Source: an uncultured Fibrobacteraceae bacterium
GTDB lineage: Bacteria > Krumholzibacteriota > Krumholzibacteriia > LZORAL124-64-63
Reading direction: 5' to 3'
Assembly: GCA_964545545.1 (NCBI GenBank)
Contig: CAZJGK010000001.1
Location: forward strand, 35,375-99,374
Length of the DNA stretch: 64,000 bases
Position 1 is the first letter of the stretch. Each line of letters opens with the position of its first letter. The position numbers were made by a program, and so were the translations under genes. A model generated the notes under the pieces. The model worked only from the letters and a program-made list of their open reading frames with translations. It was not told the origin of the DNA and searched no databases. Below are positions 11,213 to 22,853 of this stretch, in pieces.

Positions 11213-12205
11213 CTACTCCGTCAGACTCGCCGGCCGATAGCTGATCTGGAAGATGAACGCCGCGTCCCGGCTGTCATCCCTCAGGTCGTTGTCGTAGCTG
11301 GTGACCACAGGGACACGGGCCCCGGCAAAGGGCTTGAAGGCGCCCAGATCATAGGACAGCCCCGGGAACACGTCCACCAGGGTGCCACCCTGGTCCAGGT
11401 TGGATTCCCCCCCCGGTGTGCCGTCGTTCCAGGAAGTTTCCACCTTGCCGTCGCCGATCAGCATGGCGCTGGCACCCAGGTTGAACCACAACTGGCCGCC
11501 CACGCGCCGGCGGGCGAACAGGGAGACCACACCCAGGTTGGCGTTGGTCACCTTGCTGGTCATGATGGCCGTACCGAAATCCGTGGCCGTCTCCTTGCCC
11601 GAGTTAAGGCGGTACAGGGCTGCAGCAATGATGCCGGTGTTGGCCGACGACCGGGCGTATTGCCCCCGGACCAGCAGATCCGTCCCGCCGGTGCCGAGAG
11701 GCACGGGATATTCACTGCCAAATTCATCGGTGTCGATCTTGGTCTCATCGCCGGTGGGCAACTTCACGCTTCCCTGGAAGCGAAACTCGGCGCCCGAACT
11801 CTGCAGACGTTTGGTGTATTCCCCATCCAGAGTGATGTCCCCCAGGCCGCTAGCCTCGGCGTCGAATCCAAAATAATGACGGGTGTAATTGAAAATCAGG
11901 GGCACATGGGCCTTGAAGGACAAGGCCGGTGACACGCGGTAAAAGGGTGCCAACACGCCGGATTTGATATCTGAAGTGACATCCACATAGGCGCTGACGC
12001 CCAACGGACCAACGGCGCCGGCACCCTGAGGCGCCGCAAACTCATCCACGGTCGGCACAATCAGGGGCGATACGGTGACGTCAAACTCCTGACCGCTACC
12101 ATCTCCCTCGGGCAAAAAATCGCCGTTCGTCTGGGCCGGCGCCAAACCGGAAACCAGCATCAGCAACACAACCGCGCACATCAGCTTCCAACCAGAGACC
12201 CTCAT
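11213..12205 (-). CDS. Secreted protein, likely outer-membrane beta-barrel. Function unknown.
   Basis: Internal ATG at 12205 with GGAG upstream gives MRVSGWKLMCAVVLLMLVSGLAPAQT (signal peptide). The rest is Gly/aromatic-rich beta-strand sequence. I reject the track's N-terminal extension to 12742 as low-complexity read-through. Confidence 0.55.
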   Translation of the reverse strand: MRVSGWKLMCAVVLLMLVSGLAPAQTNGDFLPEGDGSGQEFDVTVSPLIVPTVDEFAAPQGAGAVGPLGVSAYVDVTSDIKSGVLAPFYRVSPALSFKAHVPLIFNYTRHYFGFDAEASGLGDITLDGEYTKRLQSSGAEFRFQGSVKLPTGDETKIDTDEFGSEYPVPLGTGGTDLLVRGQYARSSANTGIIAAALYRLNSGKETATDFGTAIMTSKVTNANLGVVSLFARRRVGGQLWFNLGASAMLIGDGKVETSWNDGTPGGESNLDQGGTLVDVFPGLSYDLGAFKPFAGARVPVVTSYDNDLRDDSRDAAFIFQISYRPASLTE

Positions 12206-12365
12206 GTCGGCTCCTTTCAAGGTGTTGACTTTCCACAGACCGGCATCCCCGGCAATTTCGTGGCGAAATTCCCTTCTGAAAAACATGGCCTGCTTCGATA
12301 AACGGATGATATCATCGATTCCTATCTGAGCTTTTGCAAACAATTCCTGAAGCGGAGGGTGTTCC

Positions 12366-12851
12366 ATGTCCAGAATCCGAATCCTGTTGCCGGTCGTTTT
12401 GCTTTTGGCGGCGGCGGTGGCCCTGGCCGCAGCCGGAGTCATGAGTGTCCAGGTGCGCACCGGGAAGATGCGCGCCAAGCCTTCCTTCCTGGGTCCGGTG
12501 GTCGCCTCGGTGGGATACGGCGACCGCGTCACGGTGCTGGGCGAGAAGGGCGGTTGGGTCCAAATCCGCAACGCCTCAGGGAAGACCGGGTGGATCCATG
12601 TTTCGGCCCTGACGGAGAAAAAAGTCGTGCTGCGGGCCGGCGACGCCGATGTGGCCACCGGCGCCTCGGGCGAGGAGCTGGCGCTGGCGGGCAAGGGCTT
12701 CAATGACGCCGTCGAAGCCGAGTTCCGCGCCGAGAACCCCAACGCGGATTACACGTGGGTCGACAAGATGGAGACCTTCCGCGTCACCCCCGAGCAGGCC
12801 AGGGACTTCCTGGCCGCGGGCAAGGTCACCGTCCCCGGAGGTGAGCGATGA
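12366..12851 (+). CDS. Secreted SH3b-domain protein
   Basis: Signal peptide ILLPVVLLLAAAVALAAAG. SH3b-like VGYGDRVTVLGEKGGWVQIRNASGKTGWIHVSAL. Its stop overlaps the next start (ATGA). Confidence 0.7.
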   Translation: MSRIRILLPVVLLLAAAVALAAAGVMSVQVRTGKMRAKPSFLGPVVASVGYGDRVTVLGEKGGWVQIRNASGKTGWIHVSALTEKKVVLRAGDADVATGASGEELALAGKGFNDAVEAEFRAENPNADYTWVDKMETFRVTPEQARDFLAAGKVTVPGGER

Positions 12852-13756
12852 ACACGCGCAACCTCGTCGGAATCGCCGCCTGTACCCTGGCTCTGGCAGC
12901 CTTGTTCGGATGCAGCACCATGACGAAGATCGGCACCCAGATCGGACAGGGATCCGGCGTGATCACCGAGGAACAGGCGGCCTCGATCACCAAAACCAGC
13001 GCCGCCCTGGAGAAAACCTTCGCCGACATCACGCCCGAACAGGAGTACTACATCGGTCGGGCCGTGGCCGCGACCATCCTGCAAACCTATCACCCGTTGG
13101 ACAATCCGGCGGCCAACGCCTACATGAATGAACTGGGTCAAACCCTGGCCATGGCCTCGGACCGGCCCGAGACCTTCGGGGGCTATCATTTCCTGCTGCT
13201 GGACAGCGATGAAATCAACGCTTTCGCGGCCCCCGGCGGGTTGATTCTCGTGTGTCGCGGACTGGTTTCCTGTTGCAGGACCGAGGATGATCTGGCTGCC
13301 GTCCTGGCCCATGAAATCGGTCACGTGCAGGACAAGGACGGCCTGCGCGCCATCAAGAAAAGCCGCCTGACCAGCGCCTTGACCACCCTGGGCGTGGAGG
13401 CCGGGCGCAATCTGGGCAACGCCAAGGTCAAGGATTTGACCGAGCAATTCGCCGGAGGTATCCAGGACATCGTTCAGTCCCTGGTGACCAAGGGTTACGC
13501 CCGCGGGCAGGAATACGAGGCGGACGCGGCCTCGGTCGACATTCTCGGCCGGGTTGGTTACAACCCCGGTGCCCTGGTCTCCATGCTGAACCAGATGGAC
13601 AAACGCTGGCAGCCGAACGGGCCCGGGTTCGCCCGCACCCACCCGTCGCCCACCGACCGCATCCAGCATGTAAGGCCCTTGGTGGAGTCGACGGCCGGCG
13701 AAGATCAACCCCGTTCGCCCAGAGCCCGCTTCGCCGCAGCCGTACGCGGACTCTAG
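12848..13756 (+). CDS. M48-family zinc metallopeptidase lipoprotein (BepA/LoiP-like)
   Basis: Lipobox ALFGC. HEIGH zinc motif (LAHEIGHVQDKD). Downstream EYEADAASVDIL, typical of M48. Confidence 0.85.
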   Translation: MNTRNLVGIAACTLALAALFGCSTMTKIGTQIGQGSGVITEEQAASITKTSAALEKTFADITPEQEYYIGRAVAATILQTYHPLDNPAANAYMNELGQTLAMASDRPETFGGYHFLLLDSDEINAFAAPGGLILVCRGLVSCCRTEDDLAAVLAHEIGHVQDKDGLRAIKKSRLTSALTTLGVEAGRNLGNAKVKDLTEQFAGGIQDIVQSLVTKGYARGQEYEADAASVDILGRVGYNPGALVSMLNQMDKRWQPNGPGFARTHPSPTDRIQHVRPLVESTAGEDQPRSPRARFAAAVRGL

Positions 13757-13760
13757 GCTT

Positions 13761-15746
13761 ATGAAATCGAGCCATGCACATGGTCTGCTGATCGGACTGG
13801 GTGCCGGAGTGCTGGCTCTGGCCCTATGGTTCGGCCATACCCTGGACGGACTCGAAAACACAACATGGGGCTGGCGGGTGCGGGCCATGGCCCGCCCTGC
13901 GCCCACCACCGACCAGATCGTGCTCATCCTGCTGGACCAGGCCAGTCTGGATTGGGGCGAGCAGGAAAACGGACTGCCCTGGCCTTGGCCGCGTGAAGTG
14001 TACGTGCCCGTGCTGGACTTCTGCCGGCGCGCCGGAGCCACCGCGACCGCGTTCGATGTCCTGTTCACCGAGCCCTCGGCCTACGGTGTCGCGGACGACC
14101 AGGCCCTGGGCGAAGCCATTGCCCGCAACGGATCCTTCATCGGAGCCCGCTTCCTCAAACTGGGTGCCACCGGGGTCACCGGATGCGACGAACCCATTGC
14201 CGAGGTGGCCGGGGCCGCCCGGCTCCTGGCCAACGTCAGCGCGGTGCCTGATGCAGACGGCCTGTTCCGGAGCACGGACCCCGTTCGCCGGTGGAAGGAA
14301 GAACCCGTGCCCGCCCTGGGTCTGGCCGCATGGCTGACCAGCCGCAACCTGGGGATTGCGGATCTCGATTCCGTCCTGGCGGCCCTATCCCTGAAAGCTG
14401 ATCAGTCCGTTTTGCTGCGCTTTCGCGGCCCCTTGGAAACCTTCACCACCTTCAGCGCCGCCAGCATCATCCAGTCCGAATTGCGGCTCGAAGCCGGCGA
14501 AATACCCGCCGTCGACCCCGCCTTGCTGCGCGGCAAGATCGTCCTGTTCGGTTTCAGCGCGCCCGGCCTGCTGGATCAGCGTCCCACCCCCGTCAGCCGC
14601 GTGAGCCCCGGTGTGATGATCCATGCCACCCTGCTGGACAACCTGTTGAACAGGGACTTCATGCACCGGACTCCCGGTTGGGCGGTCCTGGTCGGCACCC
14701 TGTTTTTGGCCCTGTTGGCCGGATCCTTGGCGGTGACGGTCCACCGGACGCTCCATGTGATCCTGGCGGCCGCACTGCTGCTGATGATTCCCCTGGCCGT
14801 GGGCTTTGCTCTCTACGGACCCGGCCTGTGGTGGCCCGTCGTTCCGGGCACCCTGGCCGCCGCCTTGGCCGTGTTCGGCGGGGTCGTGCGCAACTACGCC
14901 GTGGAAGGCCGGCAAAAACGGTTCATCAAGCAGGCTTTCCGACACTATCTGAGCCCGGCGGTCATCGCCCGCATCCTGGACGATCCCCGCGCCCTTAAAC
15001 TGGGCGGGGAACGGCGCGAACTGACCATCATGTTCTCCGACCTGGCCGGATTCACCTCCCTGTCCGAAGGACTGGAGCCCGAAGCCCTGACCGCCCTGCT
15101 CAACGACTACCTGACCGACATGACCGATATCATCCTGGCCGAGGGGGGCACCCTGGACAAGTACGAGGGGGACGCCATCATGGCGTTCTGGAACGCCCCG
15201 CTGGACCAGGCGGACCATGCCGCGCGCGCCTGCCGGGCGGCCGTGCGTTGTCAGAAGAAATTGGACGCCCGCGCCGAGGAATTCCGGGTCCGCTGCGGCC
15301 GGCCGCTTTTCGCCCGCATCGGCGTTCACACCGGCGAGGTTATTGTCGGCAACATGGGATCGCGCCAGCGCTTCGACTATACCGTGCTGGGCGATGCGGC
15401 CAATCTGGCCTCGCGGCTCGAAGGCGCCAACAAGGCTTTCGGCAGCGCGGTGATGATCAGCGCCGCGACCCTGGCCCGGGCCGGCAACGGCTTCCTGGCC
15501 CGGCCGCTGGGTCCGGTGCGCGTGATCGGCCGACGCGAGCCCGTGGAAGTGTTTGAGCTGGCGGGTCTGGCCACCGATCCCGAGCCCGCATCCTGGACCA
15601 TCTTCGCCCGGGGCCTGGCTGCCTGGCGCGAAGGCGAAGTGAGCGGGGCCCGTGAATTTTTCGGCGCCTGCGGCGACGATCCCGTGGCCCGGCATTGCCT
15701 GGATATGATCGACCAGACCGGGGTGTGGACCCTGGACAGCAAGTAA
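13761..15746 (+). CDS. CHASE2 sensor domain fused to a class III adenylate/guanylate cyclase
   Basis: N-terminal TM helix followed by a periplasmic CHASE2-like region. Then 3 TM helices. The cyclase domain shows FSDLAGFTSLSE...GDAIMAFWNAP...GVHTGEVIVGNMG...YTVLGDAANLASRLE. Confidence 0.85.
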   Translation: MKSSHAHGLLIGLGAGVLALALWFGHTLDGLENTTWGWRVRAMARPAPTTDQIVLILLDQASLDWGEQENGLPWPWPREVYVPVLDFCRRAGATATAFDVLFTEPSAYGVADDQALGEAIARNGSFIGARFLKLGATGVTGCDEPIAEVAGAARLLANVSAVPDADGLFRSTDPVRRWKEEPVPALGLAAWLTSRNLGIADLDSVLAALSLKADQSVLLRFRGPLETFTTFSAASIIQSELRLEAGEIPAVDPALLRGKIVLFGFSAPGLLDQRPTPVSRVSPGVMIHATLLDNLLNRDFMHRTPGWAVLVGTLFLALLAGSLAVTVHRTLHVILAAALLLMIPLAVGFALYGPGLWWPVVPGTLAAALAVFGGVVRNYAVEGRQKRFIKQAFRHYLSPAVIARILDDPRALKLGGERRELTIMFSDLAGFTSLSEGLEPEALTALLNDYLTDMTDIILAEGGTLDKYEGDAIMAFWNAPLDQADHAARACRAAVRCQKKLDARAEEFRVRCGRPLFARIGVHTGEVIVGNMGSRQRFDYTVLGDAANLASRLEGANKAFGSAVMISAATLARAGNGFLARPLGPVRVIGRREPVEVFELAGLATDPEPASWTIFARGLAAWREGEVSGAREFFGACGDDPVARHCLDMIDQTGVWTLDSK

Positions 15747-15762
15747 CCGCGGAGGCGGCATC

Positions 15763-16629
15763 ATGAAAATCCTGTGCGGCGGCGTGCGCGGCTCGATTCC
15801 CTGCGCCGAGCCCAACACCACCAGGTATGGCGGACACACCACCTGCCTGCTGGTCACCGGCCAGGGCGGCGAGCTCGTGCTGCTGGATGCCGGCAGCGGC
15901 GTCAGGACCGTGGCCGACCACCTGAGACCGGCCGCGGAATCGGCGCCTGCGCTGCACATCCTGATGACCCACCTGCATCTGGACCATCTGCTCGGACTGC
16001 CCATGCTGCCGGTCCTTCACGACGCCCGCTGGACGGTGACCATCACGGGCTTTCAACCCCAAGTCGGGTCTCTCCAGGGGGCCCTGGACCGTTTGCTTTC
16101 ACCCCCGCTGTGGCCGTTCTCGCTGGCTGACTGCGCGGCGACCGTCCAGGTACGGGAGCTCACCCCTGCCGATCCCCTTCCGGCGGTTGGGGGCCTGGAG
16201 ATCCGGGGCCTTCCCGTTCCCCATCCGGGCCGGTGCACGGCCTGGCGCATCGACGAATCCGCGACCGGCACCTCCCTGGTTCTGGCCACGGACATGGAGT
16301 GGTCGGCGGCCGCCCCCCGACAACGGCGGGCATTCTTGGATTTCTGCCGCCTGCCGCAGCCGGTCGACCTCCTGGTGATGGACGGTCATTTCGCTCCGCG
16401 GGAATTGTCCGGCAAAACGGGCTGGGGCCACAGCTCCACTGACGAATGCCTGGCGGTGGCCCGTGACTGCGGCGCAGCGCGTCTGTTGATCACCCACCAT
16501 GCCCCGGACCATGATGACGACCGTCTCGATGCCATGGCCGATCATGTGCACGGAGTGTGGGAACACGCCGGTCTGGCGCGCCAGGGTATGGAAATTTCAT
16601 TGGACGCATCCTTGCGAAAGGAATCCTGA
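15763..16629 (+). CDS. MBL-fold metallo-hydrolase. Candidate class II-type cNMP phosphodiesterase.
   Basis: HLHLDHLLGL motif (HxHxDH). 288 aa. GGAGG RBS. Located between the cyclase and the cNMP-gated channel genes. Confidence 0.75.
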   Translation: MKILCGGVRGSIPCAEPNTTRYGGHTTCLLVTGQGGELVLLDAGSGVRTVADHLRPAAESAPALHILMTHLHLDHLLGLPMLPVLHDARWTVTITGFQPQVGSLQGALDRLLSPPLWPFSLADCAATVQVRELTPADPLPAVGGLEIRGLPVPHPGRCTAWRIDESATGTSLVLATDMEWSAAAPRQRRAFLDFCRLPQPVDLLVMDGHFAPRELSGKTGWGHSSTDECLAVARDCGAARLLITHHAPDHDDDRLDAMADHVHGVWEHAGLARQGMEISLDASLRKES

Positions 16630-16631
16630 GC

Positions 16632-18236
16632 GTGAACGCCTACACTTCGACCATCCTGGAATTTGTGATCCTGTTTCTGATCTGGCTGATGGCCACGATT
16701 CTCACCTCACCCCTGAGACGTCGCCTGCATGACCAGGGCGAAACTATCCAGCCGGTTTCCACGGCGTTGCGCGCGATTTTCCCCCACCTGTCCCGTTCCC
16801 TGCTGGTTTTGGTCCTGACCCAGGTCCTGGTGATGGCGACGGCGGCCTGGCCCGCCGTGTCCGGTTGGCTCGACCTTCATCATGGACACCTGGTAGCGTG
16901 GCAGATCTTCTGGCTCGGCCTGTTCATCATCAATCTGGCCGAGAGTTGCCTTCAGGCGGTTTTCAGCTGGCGTAAGCAGGCATTCCCTTTGCCGGATCTG
17001 CTCCTGGACATTTTCCGCGGAATCCTGGTTGTCACCCTGGCGTTGCTGGTGCTGCGGTTTGAACTCAGCATCGATATCGGGCCGTTGTTGGCCTCCACCG
17101 CACTGCTGACCGCCGTGGCCGGCTTCGCTTTGCAGGGCGTGCTGGGCAACCTCATGGCCGGCATGTCCCTTCACCTTGTGCGCACGTTGAAGCCGGGGGT
17201 CTGGGTGGAGGTGGACGGCATCGAGGGCCGCATTCTGCGCACCAACTGGCGCGAAACCCGGATCCGCACCCGCGGGGGGCACCTCTACATCATTCCCAAC
17301 GCCAGGATCGCCGCGTCCAAGATCCACAACTACGCCGAGCCCACGCCCCTGCGACGCCATGTGGTCAACGTGGGCGCCAGTTACAGCGACGCCCCCGACG
17401 AGGTCATGGCCGCCATGGTGGCGGCGGCCCGCGCCGTACCCGAGGTGCGGTCCAGCCCGGCGCCGGAGGCCATGATCACCGAGTTCCAGGACTTCGGCGT
17501 CAACTACCGCCTGGAGTTCTGGACCACAGAGCTGCAGCGCCATAACCCCATCGACGGCGCCGTCAACCGCGTGATCTGGTACCAGTTCAAACGCCGCGGC
17601 ATCGAAATCCCCTTCCCCATGAGCGACAAGCTGCTCAACGATTTCATGGCCGTGGTCTACAACCAGCGGCGGTTGCCGCCCGTGCCTGAAGACATTTCAC
17701 GCACGGTCGACGACCTGCTCCGCAGCGACCTTTGCACCGGCCTGCTGCAGAGCGAAAGCGGGGAACCCTTGTTCACCCCCCAGGACCTGGAAAAGCTCGC
17801 CCCCCACCTCGGTCGCCTGCCCTATACCAACGGGGAAACCCTGTGTGCACAGGGTGACGGAGGGGAAACATTCTGGATCGTCACCGGCGGCAAGCTGATG
17901 GGCACCGTGGCGCAGGATGGCCACACCGCCGCCGAATTCGAACTCGGCCCCGGCGCCGTGGTGGGTGAGATGAGTTGCCTGACGGGCCTGCCCCGCAGCG
18001 CCACGCTCATGACCACCACCGGAACCGAGCTGCTGGAATTCGGCCCGGCTGCTTTTCAAGCCCTGCTGGAACTGCATCCGGGGATCCCCGAGCGTCTGGC
18101 TGACCTGGCGGCCGCCCGGGCGGCCGAGAACCAGGCCTCACTGGAAACCCTGGCCGGCAGCCTGCAGCCAGAGAGCCCCATCGTCCTGGAGAAACGGGGA
18201 ATCCTGGGCCGGTTGTTGCGAATCATGAATCGGTGA
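16632..18236 (+). CDS. MscS-family mechanosensitive channel with a C-terminal cyclic-nucleotide-binding domain (bCNG-type)
   Basis: TM helices, then an MscS beta domain (GVWVEVDGIEGRILRTNWRETRIRTRGGHLYIIPN). C-terminal cNMP-binding motif GPGAVVGEMSCLTGLPRSATLMT. I chose the GTG at 16632 (AAAGGA upstream) to avoid overlap with the upstream gene. Confidence 0.75.
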   Translation: MNAYTSTILEFVILFLIWLMATILTSPLRRRLHDQGETIQPVSTALRAIFPHLSRSLLVLVLTQVLVMATAAWPAVSGWLDLHHGHLVAWQIFWLGLFIINLAESCLQAVFSWRKQAFPLPDLLLDIFRGILVVTLALLVLRFELSIDIGPLLASTALLTAVAGFALQGVLGNLMAGMSLHLVRTLKPGVWVEVDGIEGRILRTNWRETRIRTRGGHLYIIPNARIAASKIHNYAEPTPLRRHVVNVGASYSDAPDEVMAAMVAAARAVPEVRSSPAPEAMITEFQDFGVNYRLEFWTTELQRHNPIDGAVNRVIWYQFKRRGIEIPFPMSDKLLNDFMAVVYNQRRLPPVPEDISRTVDDLLRSDLCTGLLQSESGEPLFTPQDLEKLAPHLGRLPYTNGETLCAQGDGGETFWIVTGGKLMGTVAQDGHTAAEFELGPGAVVGEMSCLTGLPRSATLMTTTGTELLEFGPAAFQALLELHPGIPERLADLAAARAAENQASLETLAGSLQPESPIVLEKRGILGRLLRIMNR

Positions 18237-18247
18237 CGGTCAGGGCA

Positions 18248-18646
18248 TCATTCGTATGCGCGCGGCACGGCACAGATGAACACAAACGGCTCGCGGCCCG
18301 TATTGCGGAACTGGTGAACATCCCCGGGAGCCACGAAGGCGAATTCGCCGGTGCCGATGGGATGGGGATGACCCTCGGCATCGATCAGGGCGCCATGGCC
18401 GCTGATCACGAAATTCAGGTGCTCAACATCGTGGCTGTGATGGGGTGAGTGGCCACCCGGTTCAACGGTGAAGACACGAAAGGAAAAATTGGGGACACCG
18501 TCGGCGCTGCCCAAAACGAGCTGTTTTGTGATCCCCTTGACCCCCTCCATGGCGATGGGGCTCACGGGAACATCTTCGAGTTTGCGGATGATCACCACGT
18601 CTCCTTCCGGTTGTGCATTCGGCCTGCGCTGGGTATGGTTCGACAT
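18248..18646 (-). CDS. Cupin-domain protein
   Basis: Cupin_2 pattern: GGHSPHHSHDVEHLNFVISG...GDVHQFRN. 132 aa. Confidence 0.7.
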   Translation of the reverse strand: MSNHTQRRPNAQPEGDVVIIRKLEDVPVSPIAMEGVKGITKQLVLGSADGVPNFSFRVFTVEPGGHSPHHSHDVEHLNFVISGHGALIDAEGHPHPIGTGEFAFVAPGDVHQFRNTGREPFVFICAVPRAYE

Positions 18647-18706
18647 GATAAGGGAACATTGCGTGTTTCGCCGCGCTCGTTACGCTGGGGCAAGGATACG
18701 GTCCTG

Positions 18707-19135
18707 ATGGAAGATCTCATCATCAATTCCCGCGTTCGTATTCCATCAGGCGAACTGGAAATCACCGCCAGCCGTTCCTCGGGGCCCGGAGGCCAGCACG
18801 TCAACACCACCGATACGCGCATTCAGGTGCGCTGGAATATTCCCACGACCACGGCGGTGGGAAATATCCGGCGTGAACGCCTGTTGAGCGTGTTGGGTAG
18901 CCGCTTGACCACGACCGGAGACCTGATTCTGGCGTGTGACAGCCACCGCAGCCAGCGCCGCAACCGCCAGGATGTCCTGCAACGCCTGGCCGCCATGGTG
19001 CGCGCAGCCCTGGTGCCGCCTCGCCCCCGCAAGGAAACCCGTCCCAGTGCGGCCGCCAAACGACGGCGCCTGGAAGCCAAACGCCGACAGGCTCAGCGCA
19101 AGAAGAACCGTGGGCCCGTGCACGATCAGGACTGA
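18707..19135 (+). CDS. arfB: Alternative ribosome-rescue factor ArfB (peptidyl-tRNA hydrolase, YaeJ family)
   Basis: GGQ motif (GPGGQHVNTTDT) and a basic C-terminal tail (KRRRLEAKRRQAQRKKNR). About 142 aa, starting MEDLIINSRVRIP. I reject the track's N-terminal extension to 18449. Confidence 0.8.
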   Translation: MEDLIINSRVRIPSGELEITASRSSGPGGQHVNTTDTRIQVRWNIPTTTAVGNIRRERLLSVLGSRLTTTGDLILACDSHRSQRRNRQDVLQRLAAMVRAALVPPRPRKETRPSAAAKRRRLEAKRRQAQRKKNRGPVHDQD

Positions 19136-19349: not shown

Positions 19350-22300
19350 ATGAAACGCATTGTCTTGTCGACTTCCGTCCTCGGAGCCGTCCTTCTCGTG
19401 GGCCTGTGCCTGATTGTCGGCCAGGGTCCTACGGATCAACCGTCCACCTGGTTTCAGAACCGGCACGCCCAGCTGGAAAATGAGCTTCAGCACGCCGCCC
19501 CCGGGTCGGACAGGGCCTTCAAATACCAGATGAAACTCGACCGTTTGGACGCCTACAAGGAGGGCCGGCCCCAGCCGGGATTCCCCGATGAATTCGCCCG
19601 CGTGCTCTACGAGATGAAAATTCCCAGCGACCGGACCACCCCCGAGTACACCCCCGGTTACCAGAGCCGCGCGCTGGCCAAGGCGCCCCGCCGCCAGTAC
19701 ACGGACAAGACCATCACCTGGACGCCCCGTGGCCCGGGCAATGTGGCCGGCCGCGCCCGGGGAATCATCGTCGATCCCGACGATCCCTCGGGCCTCACAT
19801 GGTTCATCGCCAGTGTGGGCGGCGGCGTGTGGAAGACCACCGACGGCGGCTCCAGCTGGCAGGTTTTGACCGACAACGTGCCCAACCTGGCCGTACAATC
19901 TTTGGCCATGGCCGCCAGTGACCACGACATCATGTACGCGGGCACCGGCGAAAGCTTCTTCAACGTCGACACCATGAACGGCAACGGCATCCTCAAATCC
20001 ACCGATCACGGCGCTACCTGGTTTCAGCTTGTCTCGACGCTGAGCGATGTCCGTTTCAACAACATTTCACGCATCATCGTCTCGCCGACGGACCCGAACC
20101 TGGTGCTCGCCTCCGCAACCACCGGCAGCTACAAGCAGACCATCTCGGCGACCTCCAGCATTTTCCGCTCGACCGACGGCGGCATAGACTGGACCGAAGT
20201 CTATAACAACCCTTCCAATCAGATTCAGCAAATCATTGCCGACCCCACGGATTTCAGTATCCAGTATGCCTGCGTCAAGAATTACGGCGTCCTCAAGTCG
20301 ATCGACGCGGGCCAGACTTGGTCACCGTCCCGCAACGGGATCACCAATACCGCGGGCCGCTTCGAGATGGCCATCTCTCCGCTGAACAACACGTACCTGT
20401 ACGCAGTATCCGAGGGATCTTCCGATGCCATATTGTGGACCTCGTGGGACAGCGGTTTTACCTGGAACCAGACCTATGAAAACGGCGGCACCGAACCCAA
20501 TTGGCTCGGCACCCAGGGCTGGTACGACAACACCATCATCTGCAGTCCCGATACTCCCACCATCGTGTACGTGGGCGGCACGGAGCTCTACAAAATCCAG
20601 CTGGATGCCGTGGGCTCCACGAACCGGACCTCGACGCCCATGGCCAGTTACTCCTTTCCCCACCCGGACCACCATTGCCTGCAGATCATCCAGCCTTCGG
20701 GCGGCGGCTGGTTCCTGCTGGGCACCAACGACGGCGGTCTGACCCGCACCGCCTCGCAGGAATCCGGATTTACCATGCCCATCAACGGGATGGTCACCAC
20801 CCAGTTCTACGGCGTGGACAAAATGCCCGGCGGCAGCGCCTACGTCGGCGGCATGCAGGACAACGGCACCTGGCGTTCACCCGTTGATGCCACCGCGAGT
20901 TCGCCCTGGGCGCCCCAGATCGGCGGCGACGGTTACGAAACCGACTGGAATTTCGACGATCCCCTGAAAATCATGGGCGGTTACCAGTTCAACGGGCTGA
21001 TGCGCTCCCTGGACGGCGGCATGACCTGGGAAGCGGCCGACAACGGACTGGGCGACACCGGCAGCAGCGCGGCCCCGTTCATCACCAAGATCGGCCAGAG
21101 CGACGCTCGGCCCGACGTGGTTTTCGCGGTCGGCTCCCAGGGTGTCTGGCGATCGACGGACTTCGGCGGCAGCTGGAGCCTGTCCACGACTCCCTCGGGT
21201 GATTGGGGTGGGCTGAGCTCCTTCCAGGACGTCAGGGTGTCCCAGGCCGATCCGGACATCGTCTGGGCCGGCTCCCGCATGGATGCCACCGGCAGCATCC
21301 TGATCTCCACCGACGGCGGCGCCACCTTCACCGCCACCACCGACTACACCTCCGTGACCATGGGCCGCATTTCCGGCCTGGCCACCGATCCCGTCTCGTC
21401 CAGCACCGCGTACGTATTGTTCTCCTACGCCACGCGGCCCAAAATCCTCAAGACCACGGACCAGGGCGCAAGCTGGGCCGACATCTCAGGCTTCGGCACC
21501 GGTTCGGTGAGCACCAACGGCTTCCCCGACGTGGCGGTTTACGACCTGATGGTCTGGCCCAACGACCCCAACCGGATCTGGGTCGGCACCGAGATCGGCT
21601 TGGTCGAATCCCTGGACGGCGGCGCAACCTGGGCCCTGGCCAACAACGGCTTGCCCGCGGTCGGTATCTGGCAGATCAGGACCGTTGAGGACCAGGTCGT
21701 GGTCGCCACCCACGGGCGCGGAATCTGGACCACCACCGACCCCGCACTGGTGACCGGCAAGACCTTCAACCCCTTGCTGGCCAACCTTTTCCAATCCCCT
21801 ACCGGGACCATGACCATCGACATGAACCTGCGCAGCGCGTACGACTCCACCCAGGTCTATGTGGACGGCGCCAAGATTCAGACCTATCCGGCCAACACCG
21901 CCCTGCAACAGGAGACCATCGAGGTTCCCGTGGTTGCCAACGGCACCCGGAACGTCTATGTCCGCGGCTTCAAGGCCGGCTCGACTTACGATTCGGTCAC
22001 CCGCACCCTTGATGTCTTCGCCCTGAGCCAGCCCCAGTTCACGTACGCCAACTCCCTGGACAACGGCAGCGACTGGGCCATGACCGAATTCTCCATCCAG
22101 ACCCCCGGCGGTTTTTCCAACCCCGCGCTGCACACGACCCACTTCTACACCAACAACAGCAGCCCGGTGGCCATGTTGACCGTGCCGGTGAGTATCTCTT
22201 CCCAGACCGACCTTTCCTTCGATGAGATCGCCATCGTCGAGCCCGGCGATCCCGGGTCGGTCTATGGCGACAGCGGTTTCTGGGATTATGTGACCGTGGA

Positions 22301-22853
22301 GGGATCCCTGGATGGGCTCACCTGGCAACCGGTGGACAGCGCTTGGGATTGCCGCGAATACAACGACTGGCTGAACGCCTTCAACGGCGGCCTGTCGGGC
22401 ACCGCAGCCATGTTCCACAACCACACCATCAACCTGAACAACACCTTCAACACCGGTGACGTGATCCTGCTGAGATTCCGCCTGTTTGCCGATGGTTACG
22501 TGACCGGTTGGGGCTGGGCCATCGACAACCTCAGCATCACCCCCCACGGGGTGTCCGGCGCCGGCGACACCCCGCGCCCGGTCACCCTGGCGCAGAATTA
22601 CCCCAACCCGTTCAACCCCATGACGACGATCTCCTTCAGCCTGGCAACCCGCAGCCCGGTCAAGATGCAGATCTTCGACACCCGCGGCCGGCTGGTGCGC
22701 ACCCTGCTCGACGAGCAGTTCAGCGAGGGCCGGCACTCCGTGGTCTGGGACGGCAAGGACAACCAGGAACGCCCATCCGCGACCGGCGTGTACCTCTACC
22801 GCCTGACCGCCGGGACCACCGTGCTGCAGGACAAGATGACGTTGATCAAATAG
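19350..22853 (+). CDS. Large secreted BNR/Asp-box repeat beta-propeller protein (sortilin/GH74-like architecture) with a T9SS C-terminal sorting domain
   Basis: Signal peptide MKRIVLSTSVLGAVLLVGLCLIVG. About 10 Asp-box repeats (STDGGSSW, STDHGATW, STDGGIDW, SIDAGQTW, SLDGGMTW, STDFGGSW, STDGGATF, TTDQGASW, SLDGGATW). The C-terminus ends MQIFDTRGRLVRTLLDE...GVYLYRLTAGTTVLQDKMTLIK. Confidence 0.85.
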   Translation: MKRIVLSTSVLGAVLLVGLCLIVGQGPTDQPSTWFQNRHAQLENELQHAAPGSDRAFKYQMKLDRLDAYKEGRPQPGFPDEFARVLYEMKIPSDRTTPEYTPGYQSRALAKAPRRQYTDKTITWTPRGPGNVAGRARGIIVDPDDPSGLTWFIASVGGGVWKTTDGGSSWQVLTDNVPNLAVQSLAMAASDHDIMYAGTGESFFNVDTMNGNGILKSTDHGATWFQLVSTLSDVRFNNISRIIVSPTDPNLVLASATTGSYKQTISATSSIFRSTDGGIDWTEVYNNPSNQIQQIIADPTDFSIQYACVKNYGVLKSIDAGQTWSPSRNGITNTAGRFEMAISPLNNTYLYAVSEGSSDAILWTSWDSGFTWNQTYENGGTEPNWLGTQGWYDNTIICSPDTPTIVYVGGTELYKIQLDAVGSTNRTSTPMASYSFPHPDHHCLQIIQPSGGGWFLLGTNDGGLTRTASQESGFTMPINGMVTTQFYGVDKMPGGSAYVGGMQDNGTWRSPVDATASSPWAPQIGGDGYETDWNFDDPLKIMGGYQFNGLMRSLDGGMTWEAADNGLGDTGSSAAPFITKIGQSDARPDVVFAVGSQGVWRSTDFGGSWSLSTTPSGDWGGLSSFQDVRVSQADPDIVWAGSRMDATGSILISTDGGATFTATTDYTSVTMGRISGLATDPVSSSTAYVLFSYATRPKILKTTDQGASWADISGFGTGSVSTNGFPDVAVYDLMVWPNDPNRIWVGTEIGLVESLDGGATWALANNGLPAVGIWQIRTVEDQVVVATHGRGIWTTTDPALVTGKTFNPLLANLFQSPTGTMTIDMNLRSAYDSTQVYVDGAKIQTYPANTALQQETIEVPVVANGTRNVYVRGFKAGSTYDSVTRTLDVFALSQPQFTYANSLDNGSDWAMTEFSIQTPGGFSNPALHTTHFYTNNSSPVAMLTVPVSISSQTDLSFDEIAIVEPGDPGSVYGDSGFWDYVTVEGSLDGLTWQPVDSAWDCREYNDWLNAFNGGLSGTAAMFHNHTINLNNTFNTGDVILLRFRLFADGYVTGWGWAIDNLSITPHGVSGAGDTPRPVTLAQNYPNPFNPMTTISFSLATRSPVKMQIFDTRGRLVRTLLDEQFSEGRHSVVWDGKDNQERPSATGVYLYRLTAGTTVLQDKMTLIK

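Follow-up and report, generated by a model that had tools for sequence, protein, structure and literature searches.

A five-gene operon predicted to couple envelope sensing by a CHASE2 receptor cyclase to an MscS-type channel with a cyclic-nucleotide-binding domain

A block of five co-directional genes (g1-g5, positions 12366-18236) in a 64,000-nucleotide stretch of contig CAZJGK010000001.1 (assembly GCA_964545545.1, an uncultured Fibrobacteraceae bacterium; the whole stretch is hereafter the window) probably constitutes a self-contained envelope-to-channel cyclic AMP (cAMP) signalling operon. The predicted products are an exported SH3b protein (g1), a lipoprotein M48 zinc metalloprotease (g2), a CHASE2 receptor cyclase (g3), a cytoplasmic metallo-β-lactamase (MBL)-fold enzyme (g4) and an MscS-type channel with a cyclic nucleotide monophosphate (cNMP)-binding domain (g5). 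In the proposed mechanism, the SH3b protein would serve as a periplasmic partner of CHASE2, probably via an invariant helical region with the motif ELALAGKGF, and the M48 protease would, by cleaving the SH3b protein, control how much of it is present or in what form, thereby turning an envelope condition into cyclase activity. The cAMP made by g3 would bind the cytoplasmic domain of the channel and alter its gating, resulting in a flow of ions or solutes, while the MBL enzyme would hydrolyse cAMP and thus render the response transient. The parts are all of known kinds (g4 at the level of a fold clade only), and their assembly is undescribed in the literature found; searches on CHASE2 together with M48, SH3, mechanosensitive channels or ligands and periplasmic partners returned no description of the module. 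What appears to be new is a one-operon loop of receptor, messenger, predicted phosphodiesterase and channel, accompanied by a dedicated SH3b/protease accessory pair.

The conservation of the block carries much of the argument. Module loci were defined as those with all five genes colinear within 9 kb, and residues were compared over 16 of them (the window and 15 others). Fifteen further loci repeat the gene order of the block for all five genes. A genome scan with the cyclase, combined with tblastn of the five proteins, found the complete order in three metagenome-assembled genomes (MAGs) of Krumholzibacteriia, the group to which the source of the window evidently belongs, at 63-75% identity, as well as in a Sedimentisphaerales MAG (47%) and an unclassified bacterium (54%). 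The neighbourhoods of MBL and SH3b homologues supplied more full modules, in a Latescibacteria MAG and in three other assemblies, and a metagenome scan with an MBL alignment and tblastn added six complete modules, plus eleven that were truncated but consistent. Since the identical order recurs in 15 other loci, the five-gene linkage is not due to chance, and as the genes to either side change from one lineage to another, the block of five travels as a unit. Identity to the window co-varies among the five proteins from locus to locus, the MBL protein diverging fastest. In the module loci the functional residues are invariant, apart from conservative changes at T541 of the cyclase and S456 of the channel. 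The MBL gene follows the cyclase gene immediately in more than 20 loci. In one relative (L005:11868-12608, minus strand), a C_GCAxxG_C_C/DUF2007 gene is inserted between the cyclase and MBL genes on the opposite strand, so the operon tolerates interruption at this point.

An earlier note on this DNA had proposed, from the letters of the window, a circuit of CHASE2 sensing, class III synthesis and a cNMP channel as effector, and the domains, the intact residues and the synteny all support this prediction. The members are linked in relatives: across several phyla, 15 other loci keep the full order, and the cyclase catalytic residues and cNMP-binding residues are present in the window and conserved in the 16 loci. 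The remark that such a loop in one operon is uncommon is true of the literature found, but the module is not rare in sequence databases.

The five genes are closely packed on the plus strand. Gene g1 (12366-12851) encodes 161 aa with a Pfam SH3_3 match (51 bits, 1.5e-13), g2 (12848-13756) encodes 302 aa with Peptidase_M48 (PF01435; 114 bits, 1e-32), g3 (13761-15746) encodes 661 aa with CHASE2 (163 bits, 1e-47) and Guanylate_cyc (77 bits, 2.2e-21), g4 (15763-16629) encodes 288 aa with Lactamase_B_2 (61.5 bits), and g5 (16632-18236) encodes 534 aa from GTG 16632 with MS_channel_2nd (51.5 bits), MS_channel_3rd (44 bits) and cNMP_binding (54 bits). In this Pfam scan of the open reading frames (ORFs) of the window, every cited domain match exceeds the gathering score, and the domain hidden Markov models thus recovered every domain that had been named for g1-g5. 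The spacing is -4 bp between g1 and g2, 4 bp between g2 and g3, 16 bp between g3 and g4, and 2 bp between g4 and g5 when g5 is read from GTG 16632. The ATGA stop/start overlap of g1 and g2 (12848..12851, plus strand), read from the sequence, suggests translational coupling, and the -4 overlap is kept in 14 of the 16 module loci. Taken at its longest, from GTG 16557, the g5 ORF shares 73 bp with g4, and this GTG is unlikely to be the true start. GTG 16632, lying 9 nt 3' of an AAAGGAA ribosome-binding-like site and 2 bp past the g4 stop, is the likely one, and ATG 16689 is a possible alternative. Of the original description, a co-directional block with gaps or overlaps of 0-17 bp, the five ORFs, their named domains and the ATGA at 12848 stand, and the start of g5 has been corrected to GTG 16632.

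Opposite-strand genes lie on either side of the block (11213-12205 and a cupin gene at 18248-18646, both on the minus strand), and because they bound both ends, g1-g5 form a discrete co-directional unit. No second cyclase or cNMP-binding gene was found elsewhere in the 64-kb window. Neither sigma-70 promoters nor intrinsic terminators were found above shuffled expectation over 12000-18700, and none lay at the operon ends. For CRP-type sites (TGTGA-N6-TCACA, at most 2 mismatches), 13 were found against 18 expected, with none in the intergenic region 12206-12365, and there is therefore no sign of cAMP-CRP feedback.

Gene g3 encodes a receptor composed of a first transmembrane (TM) helix, an extracytoplasmic CHASE2 domain (13812-14720), three TM helices and a class III cyclase domain (15018-15554). 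The CHASE2 match (PF05226) reaches 163 bits over residues 18-320 and is flanked by hydrophobic segments at residues 6-24 and ~309-376, and the Guanylate_cyc match (PF00211) reaches 76.7 bits against a cut-off of 21.9. The closest solved cyclase domains are those of Synechocystis Cya2 (2w01; engineered 6fht) and P. aeruginosa CyaB (3r5g), and alignment with Cya2 and CyaB places the metal-binding residues at D427 and D471, the substrate pair at K467/T541 and the transition-state residues at N548 and R552. In class III cyclases, Lys with Asp or Thr specifies adenine, and Glu with Cys or Gly specifies guanine. The positions of K467/T541 are Glu/Gly in the guanylate cyclase Cya2 and Lys/Thr in the adenylate cyclase CyaB. 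Across the 16 loci, K467 is kept in all, the position of T541 is T in 15 and S in one, and the other catalytic residues are invariant. Because g3 has the Lys/Thr pair, its product, and with it the messenger of the module, is predicted to be cAMP under the established class III cyclase rules.

The architecture of g3 (TM, CHASE2, TM segments, class III cyclase) is shared by Cya2 and by CyaD1, CyaD2 and CyaK of S. meliloti. Cya2 differs in being a guanylate cyclase, with Glu/Gly where g3 has Lys/Thr. Moreover, no SH3b/M48 pair, adjacent phosphodiesterase or channel has been reported for Cya2 or the S. meliloti enzymes, whereas the window module has all of them, the phosphodiesterase by prediction. 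In S. meliloti, the adenylate cyclases with CHASE2 are activated by a plant signal, and removal of CHASE2 makes CyaD1 constitutive (PMC5498481). This deletion suggests that CHASE2 is inhibitory until signalled. No solved structure of a CHASE2 domain was detectable by sequence.

Gene g5 encodes an MscS-family channel with about five predicted TM segments and a C-terminal cNMP-binding domain. Its channel domains match PF00924 and PF21082, and its cNMP domain matches PF00027 at 54 bits. In the PDB, residues 87-332 align with E. coli MscS at 1.8e-20, while the cNMP-binding domain is closest to the PKA regulatory subunit and MloK1. TM3 is typical, aligning both across the loci and with E. coli MscS. 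The phosphate-binding cassette GEMSCLTGLPRSA aligns with PKA and MloK1 and fits the G-E...R-[ST]-A pattern of PKA and CAP, and its residues G445-E446 and R455-S456-A457 are invariant in the 16 loci, except that position 456 is S, T or G. By these sequence features, g5 matches the architectural definition of the channels called bCNG (bacterial cyclic-nucleotide-gated), which have been described as MscS homologues gated by cyclic nucleotides (Caldwell et al. 2010; Malcolm et al. 2012, as cited in PMC13591265). The likeness is one of architecture, with about five predicted TM segments in g5. According to a 2026 review, neither a physiological role nor a structure is known for bCNG channels (PMC13591265). 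They have been described mostly from cyanobacteria and as stand-alone genes, whereas g5 is the last gene of an operon that would make and, as predicted, destroy its ligand.

A cyclase encoded with a cNMP-binding membrane protein could also be a Pycsar-like anti-phage system, in which the membrane effector would kill the infected cell and the MBL protein would act as an Apyc1-like regulator. Pycsar systems are defined by a PycC cyclase with a cNMP-binding effector and answer phage by making cyclic pyrimidines. The architecture is formally similar; g3 matches the PycC models of PADLOC (best 2e-34), and the cNMP-binding domain of g5 weakly matches the cNMP-binding domains of Pycsar effectors in the same resource. 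However, the PycC matches are confined to the generic core of class III cyclases, g3 has the adenylate-type substrate pair Lys/Thr, and the effector is a complete MscS channel. In addition, a large extracytoplasmic sensor fits poorly with the detection of phage inside the cell, g1, g2 and g4 have no PADLOC matches, and no PADLOC-type defence genes were seen in the neighbourhoods examined. An anti-phage role is therefore very improbable, and an envelope-to-channel pathway remains the preferred reading.

Gene g4 is predicted to encode a cytoplasmic enzyme, with no TM segment and no signal sequence. It carries HLHLDH at residues 70-75 within a complete di-metal site (H70, H72, D74, H75, H154, D177, H223 and H245), which is invariant across the module loci. 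Its AlphaFold2 (AF2) model has a predicted local distance difference test (pLDDT) value of 94.6, and in Foldseek it was matched by RNase Z (8e-16), B. subtilis YhfI (1e-14), the yeast class II cAMP phosphodiesterase PDE1 (2e-12) and Apyc1 (3e-10), with BA1088, ZipD, ELAC1, PhnP and PqqB as further PDB neighbours. The best PDB fold match is RNase Z 1y44, yet at 16% identity. The RNase Z model TIGR02651 was matched at 50 bits and the cyclic-nucleotide phosphodiesterase model NF041851 at 39.4 bits, the latter over a nearly full-length alignment; their cut-offs of 293 and 400, respectively, were not reached. In Pfam, g4 has no match to Apyc1 (PF23023) or the class II phosphodiesterase model at E<=0.01, and its homologues have only faint or weak precomputed matches to Anti-Pycsar_Apyc1 (PF23023). 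The class II phosphodiesterases (yeast PDE1), phage and bacterial Apyc1 and YhfI have the fold and the HxHxDH di-metal site in common with g4. Unlike these MBL cNMP phosphodiesterases, g4 scores far under the family cut-offs and is at least as close to RNase Z. By fold only, then, g4 is a di-metal MBL enzyme of the RNase Z/YhfI/PDE1/Apyc1 phosphodiesterase clade, and it stands outside every curated family. All three MBL homologues whose contexts were examined sit directly after a CHASE2 cyclase, and from fold and context together g4 is predicted to be a cAMP phosphodiesterase. As for the degradation step that had been read from the HxHLDH motif, the complete metal site and the phosphodiesterase-clade fold are consistent with it, the scores stay below every curated cut-off, and the assignment comes from fold and context.

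It is possible, though we consider it unlikely, that g4 is instead an RNase Z-like nuclease or another diesterase, which would leave the operon without a dedicated degradation step. The best structural and sequence neighbours of g4 are RNase Z, ZipD and ELAC1, the NCBIfam RNase Z model scores higher than the cyclic-nucleotide phosphodiesterase model (~50 versus 39 bits), and homologues are named "ribonuclease BN" in some databases. On the other hand, the RNase Z score is far under its cut-off (50 versus 293), and YhfI, PDE1, PhnP and Apyc1 share the fold neighbourhood of g4. The gene context also argues for a cyclase-linked function: besides the more than 20 loci in which an MBL gene directly follows the cyclase, two further loci (L041 and L050) have an MBL homologue near a different CHASE2 cyclase without the rest of the module. 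A phosphodiesterase that terminates the cAMP signal is therefore still the favoured function of g4. A census of the MBL relatives outside the module was rejected as independent support for phosphodiesterase activity, their contexts being mixed. Within the module, a subset of the MBL proteins are ~460 aa long (L084:7001-8386; P0059, P0067, P0077, P0101 and similar) and carry a conserved C-terminal extension of ~180 aa without a Pfam match even at E<=1.

Several points weigh against the reading of the five genes as a cAMP circuit that ends in a channel. The fold of g4 is nearer to RNase Z than to the known cNMP phosphodiesterases and far below every specific family cut-off, and PADLOC returned no match for it. 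Outside the module, MBL relatives at ~30-35% identity lie among unrelated genes, for example those for ammonium transporters and PAS proteins, so the MBL family as a whole is not dedicated to cyclases. With respect to the channel, E. coli overexpressing bCNG channels was not protected from osmotic down-shock, and a structural basis for how cyclic nucleotides affect bCNG gating is still lacking (2026 review, PMC13591265). Furthermore, some loci are without the channel: L020 has the first three genes only, L082 and L083 have a small lipoprotein as the fifth gene, and L091 has a ClC channel.

The module has two layers, a widely conserved triad of SH3b, M48 and CHASE2 cyclase genes and a narrower output pair of predicted phosphodiesterase and channel. 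The triad is also present in Kiritimatiellia, Tepidisphaerales, Elusimicrobia, Leptonemataceae and Desulfobacteraceae, sometimes with a different gene order. A Kiritimatiellia genome (L020) has the triad alone, and a Desulfobacteraceae locus (L006) has it on a cut contig. Rearranged triads occur in Elusimicrobia (L007), Tepidisphaerales (L012 and L014), Leptonemataceae (L035) and L008; the order in L007, L012 and L014 is cyclase-SH3-M48. The SH3b gene was often missed by tblastn in the distant loci and was found there by direct reading of the sequence. A Leptonemataceae SH3b-like query had only 8 relatives, and both of the contexts examined had an M48 gene and a CHASE2 cyclase. One of these two triads has an extra gene inserted (L169), and in the other, two M48 genes flank an SH3b-like gene upstream of the CHASE2 cyclase (L168:301-2419). 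The SH3b/M48 pair was not found beside a CHASE2 protein with a non-cyclase output, a combination for which no systematic search was made.

At the output end, the four-gene version of the module in Kiritimatiellia has, as its fifth gene, a 135-aa predicted lipoprotein without a Pfam match (L082:7867-8274 and L083:6536-6943). In a metagenome contig (Ga0081528_100057; L091:9833-11941), the MscS-cNMP channel is replaced by a ClC channel of 703 aa that carries a CBS pair and TrkA_C; the gene of this ClC channel starts 1 nt past the MBL stop, and the remaining locus has the typical SH3b, M48, CHASE2-cyclase and MBL genes. From this single case, L091, there is a hint that the module favours an ion channel as its output.

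In the sensing layer, g2 is predicted to be an exported lipoprotein zinc protease of family M48 whose active site is intact. A lipobox (LFG-C22), HEIGH at residues 155-159 and E222-x-x-A-D226 are present, and residues C22, H155, E156, H159, E222 and D226 are invariant in the 16 loci. The catalytic domain is BepA/LoiP-like without TPR repeats, and the nearest solved structures are the M48 protein 3c37 (2.6e-24) and BepA (~3e-20). In NCBIfam, g2 scores 107 bits against the BepA cut-off of 570 and 59 bits against the LoiP cut-off of 365; because both equivalog cut-offs are missed, g2 is regarded as a member of family M48 and not as an orthologue of BepA or LoiP. E. coli BepA, LoiP and YcaL have the M48 domain and the HExxH motif with a downstream Glu in common with g2, whose lipoprotein signal is as in LoiP. 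Unlike BepA, g2 has no TPR domain, and its gene context dedicates it to the CHASE2 receptor and the SH3b protein, not to the biogenesis of outer-membrane proteins.

The g1 product is predicted to be a secreted or N-terminally anchored, exported SH3b protein, with a single hydrophobic segment at the N-terminus (residues 6-24) followed by the SH3b domain (~27-82), a disordered linker and a conserved helical C-terminal region. In the AF2 model, the SH3 fold is confident, residues 87-105 are disordered and three helices span 102-151, with a low predicted template modelling (pTM) score of 0.44; Foldseek with this model returned SH3b domains only, and no match for the C-terminal helices. The family comprises ~384 clusters at 50% identity (profile search, E<=1e-30), most members being ~160 aa long. 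In an alignment of 40 homologues, conservation peaks at the start of the helical region and not in the SH3 domain. The conserved stretch, ASGEELALAGKGFNxxVEAEFxxxNxxxDYTWVDKME (residues 100-136; 12663..12773, plus strand), contains residues E104, A106, L107, A108, K110, G111, F112, E117, D128, D133 and M135, which are invariant in the 40 sequences. Its A(G/A)(K/R)G(F/L) core is kept in the distant triads L007, L008, L012, L014 and L035. Lying after a disordered linker, ELALAGKGF is a candidate recognition or cleavage site for the M48 protease or for CHASE2.

The first two genes may nevertheless have nothing to do with the cyclase beyond their adjacency, the SH3b and M48 proteins being a BepA/LoiP-like envelope quality-control pair that shares only a transcript with the functionally separate g3-g5. 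The best matches of g2 to the BepA and LoiP models favour such a division, and SH3b domains are common in cell-wall enzymes. However, the SH3b(AGKGF)/M48 pair stands beside a CHASE2 cyclase in every context with a long enough contig, persists in distant lineages with a rearranged order (L007, L012, L014, L168 and L169) and is kept where the phosphodiesterase and channel are lost (L020). Two separate functional units are thus improbable, and the SH3b/M48 pair is better read as part of the CHASE2 pathway.

Periplasmic partners co-encoded with CHASE2 sensors have a precedent. A neighbour census of more distant CHASE2 cyclases found FecR-domain proteins upstream of 9 of 51, and the Burkholderia BiofilmReg operon encodes a response regulator, a periplasmic protein with LysM and FecR domains, and a CHASE2 histidine kinase (PMC5192318). 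Taken together, the FecR neighbours and BiofilmReg offer an analogy for co-encoded partners of CHASE2. BiofilmReg resembles the module in that a CHASE2 sensor is encoded together with a secreted protein bearing a cell-wall-binding-type domain. It differs in that the LysM/FecR partner is not an SH3b protein, no protease is present, and a two-component phosphorelay, not cAMP, forms the output.

The suggestion of the earlier note that the SH3b and M48 proteins could generate or present the CHASE2 ligand gains support from how deeply the two are co-conserved with CHASE2 cyclases; they may activate, inhibit or reset the receptor, as may the proteolysis itself. A more specific version, which we put forward as speculation with a rather low chance of being correct, is that the SH3b protein is an M48-controlled protein ligand or pro-ligand of CHASE2: it would be cut at or near ELALAGKGF, the helical C-terminal fragment would be released or destroyed, and the fragment would dock on CHASE2 and switch the cyclase. 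If true, such a protease-controlled ligand would provide the first defined activation mechanism for CHASE2 and the first physiological circuit for a bCNG channel. The factors recognised by CHASE2 were described as unknown in a 2016 paper (PMC5192318), and no later report of a CHASE2 ligand was found in the literature. In the module, two co-conserved periplasmic partners and a sharp motif supply candidates for a CHASE2 ligand, co-receptor or regulator, while a bCNG-type channel appears to be wired to its own cyclase and a probable phosphodiesterase. The whole loop occupies ~5.9 kb, is conserved over mostly uncultured phyla and could be transplanted into E. coli. Even if its workings prove ordinary, the module would still be a clean example of a bacterial receptor-to-channel cAMP pathway.

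Upstream of g1, a 10-nt inverted repeat (GGCAATTTCG/CGAAATTCCC, 12251-12273) was dropped as a candidate element, being absent from the aligned region of the closest relative (L001). A TTTGCAA(A/T)CAATTCCTGA stretch, closer to the g1 start codon than the inverted repeat, is common to the window and L001. The divergent gene at 11213-12205 (minus strand) encodes a 330-aa protein with a signal-like N-terminus and without a Pfam match, which may reside in the outer membrane. In view of the S. meliloti outer-membrane protein NsrA, the divergent gene was weighed as a possible part of the module; it was excluded, since it adjoins the module elsewhere only in L001. In three other loci, Mla-type genes (MlaE, MlaD and an ABC ATPase) together with a TPR or other gene immediately precede the module in the same orientation (L082:1-3366, L083:147-2035 and L167:3694-7682). 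One of the three is from Kiritimatiellia, and these neighbours may reflect synteny peculiar to a lineage or a connection with outer-membrane lipid homeostasis.

Immediately 3' of the module, the cupin gene (18248-18646, minus strand) is followed by a gene for a short RF-1-domain protein resembling an ArfB-type peptidyl-tRNA hydrolase (18671-19135, plus strand), and cupin and RF-1-domain genes are also found downstream of the module in L001. Further along, the window contains a gene (19350-22853, plus strand) for a 1167-aa Sortilin/BNR beta-propeller protein, the C-terminal end of which exceeds the Pfam cut-off for FlgD_ig and falls just short of the cut-off for the type IX secretion tail models Por_Secre_tail and CHU_C.

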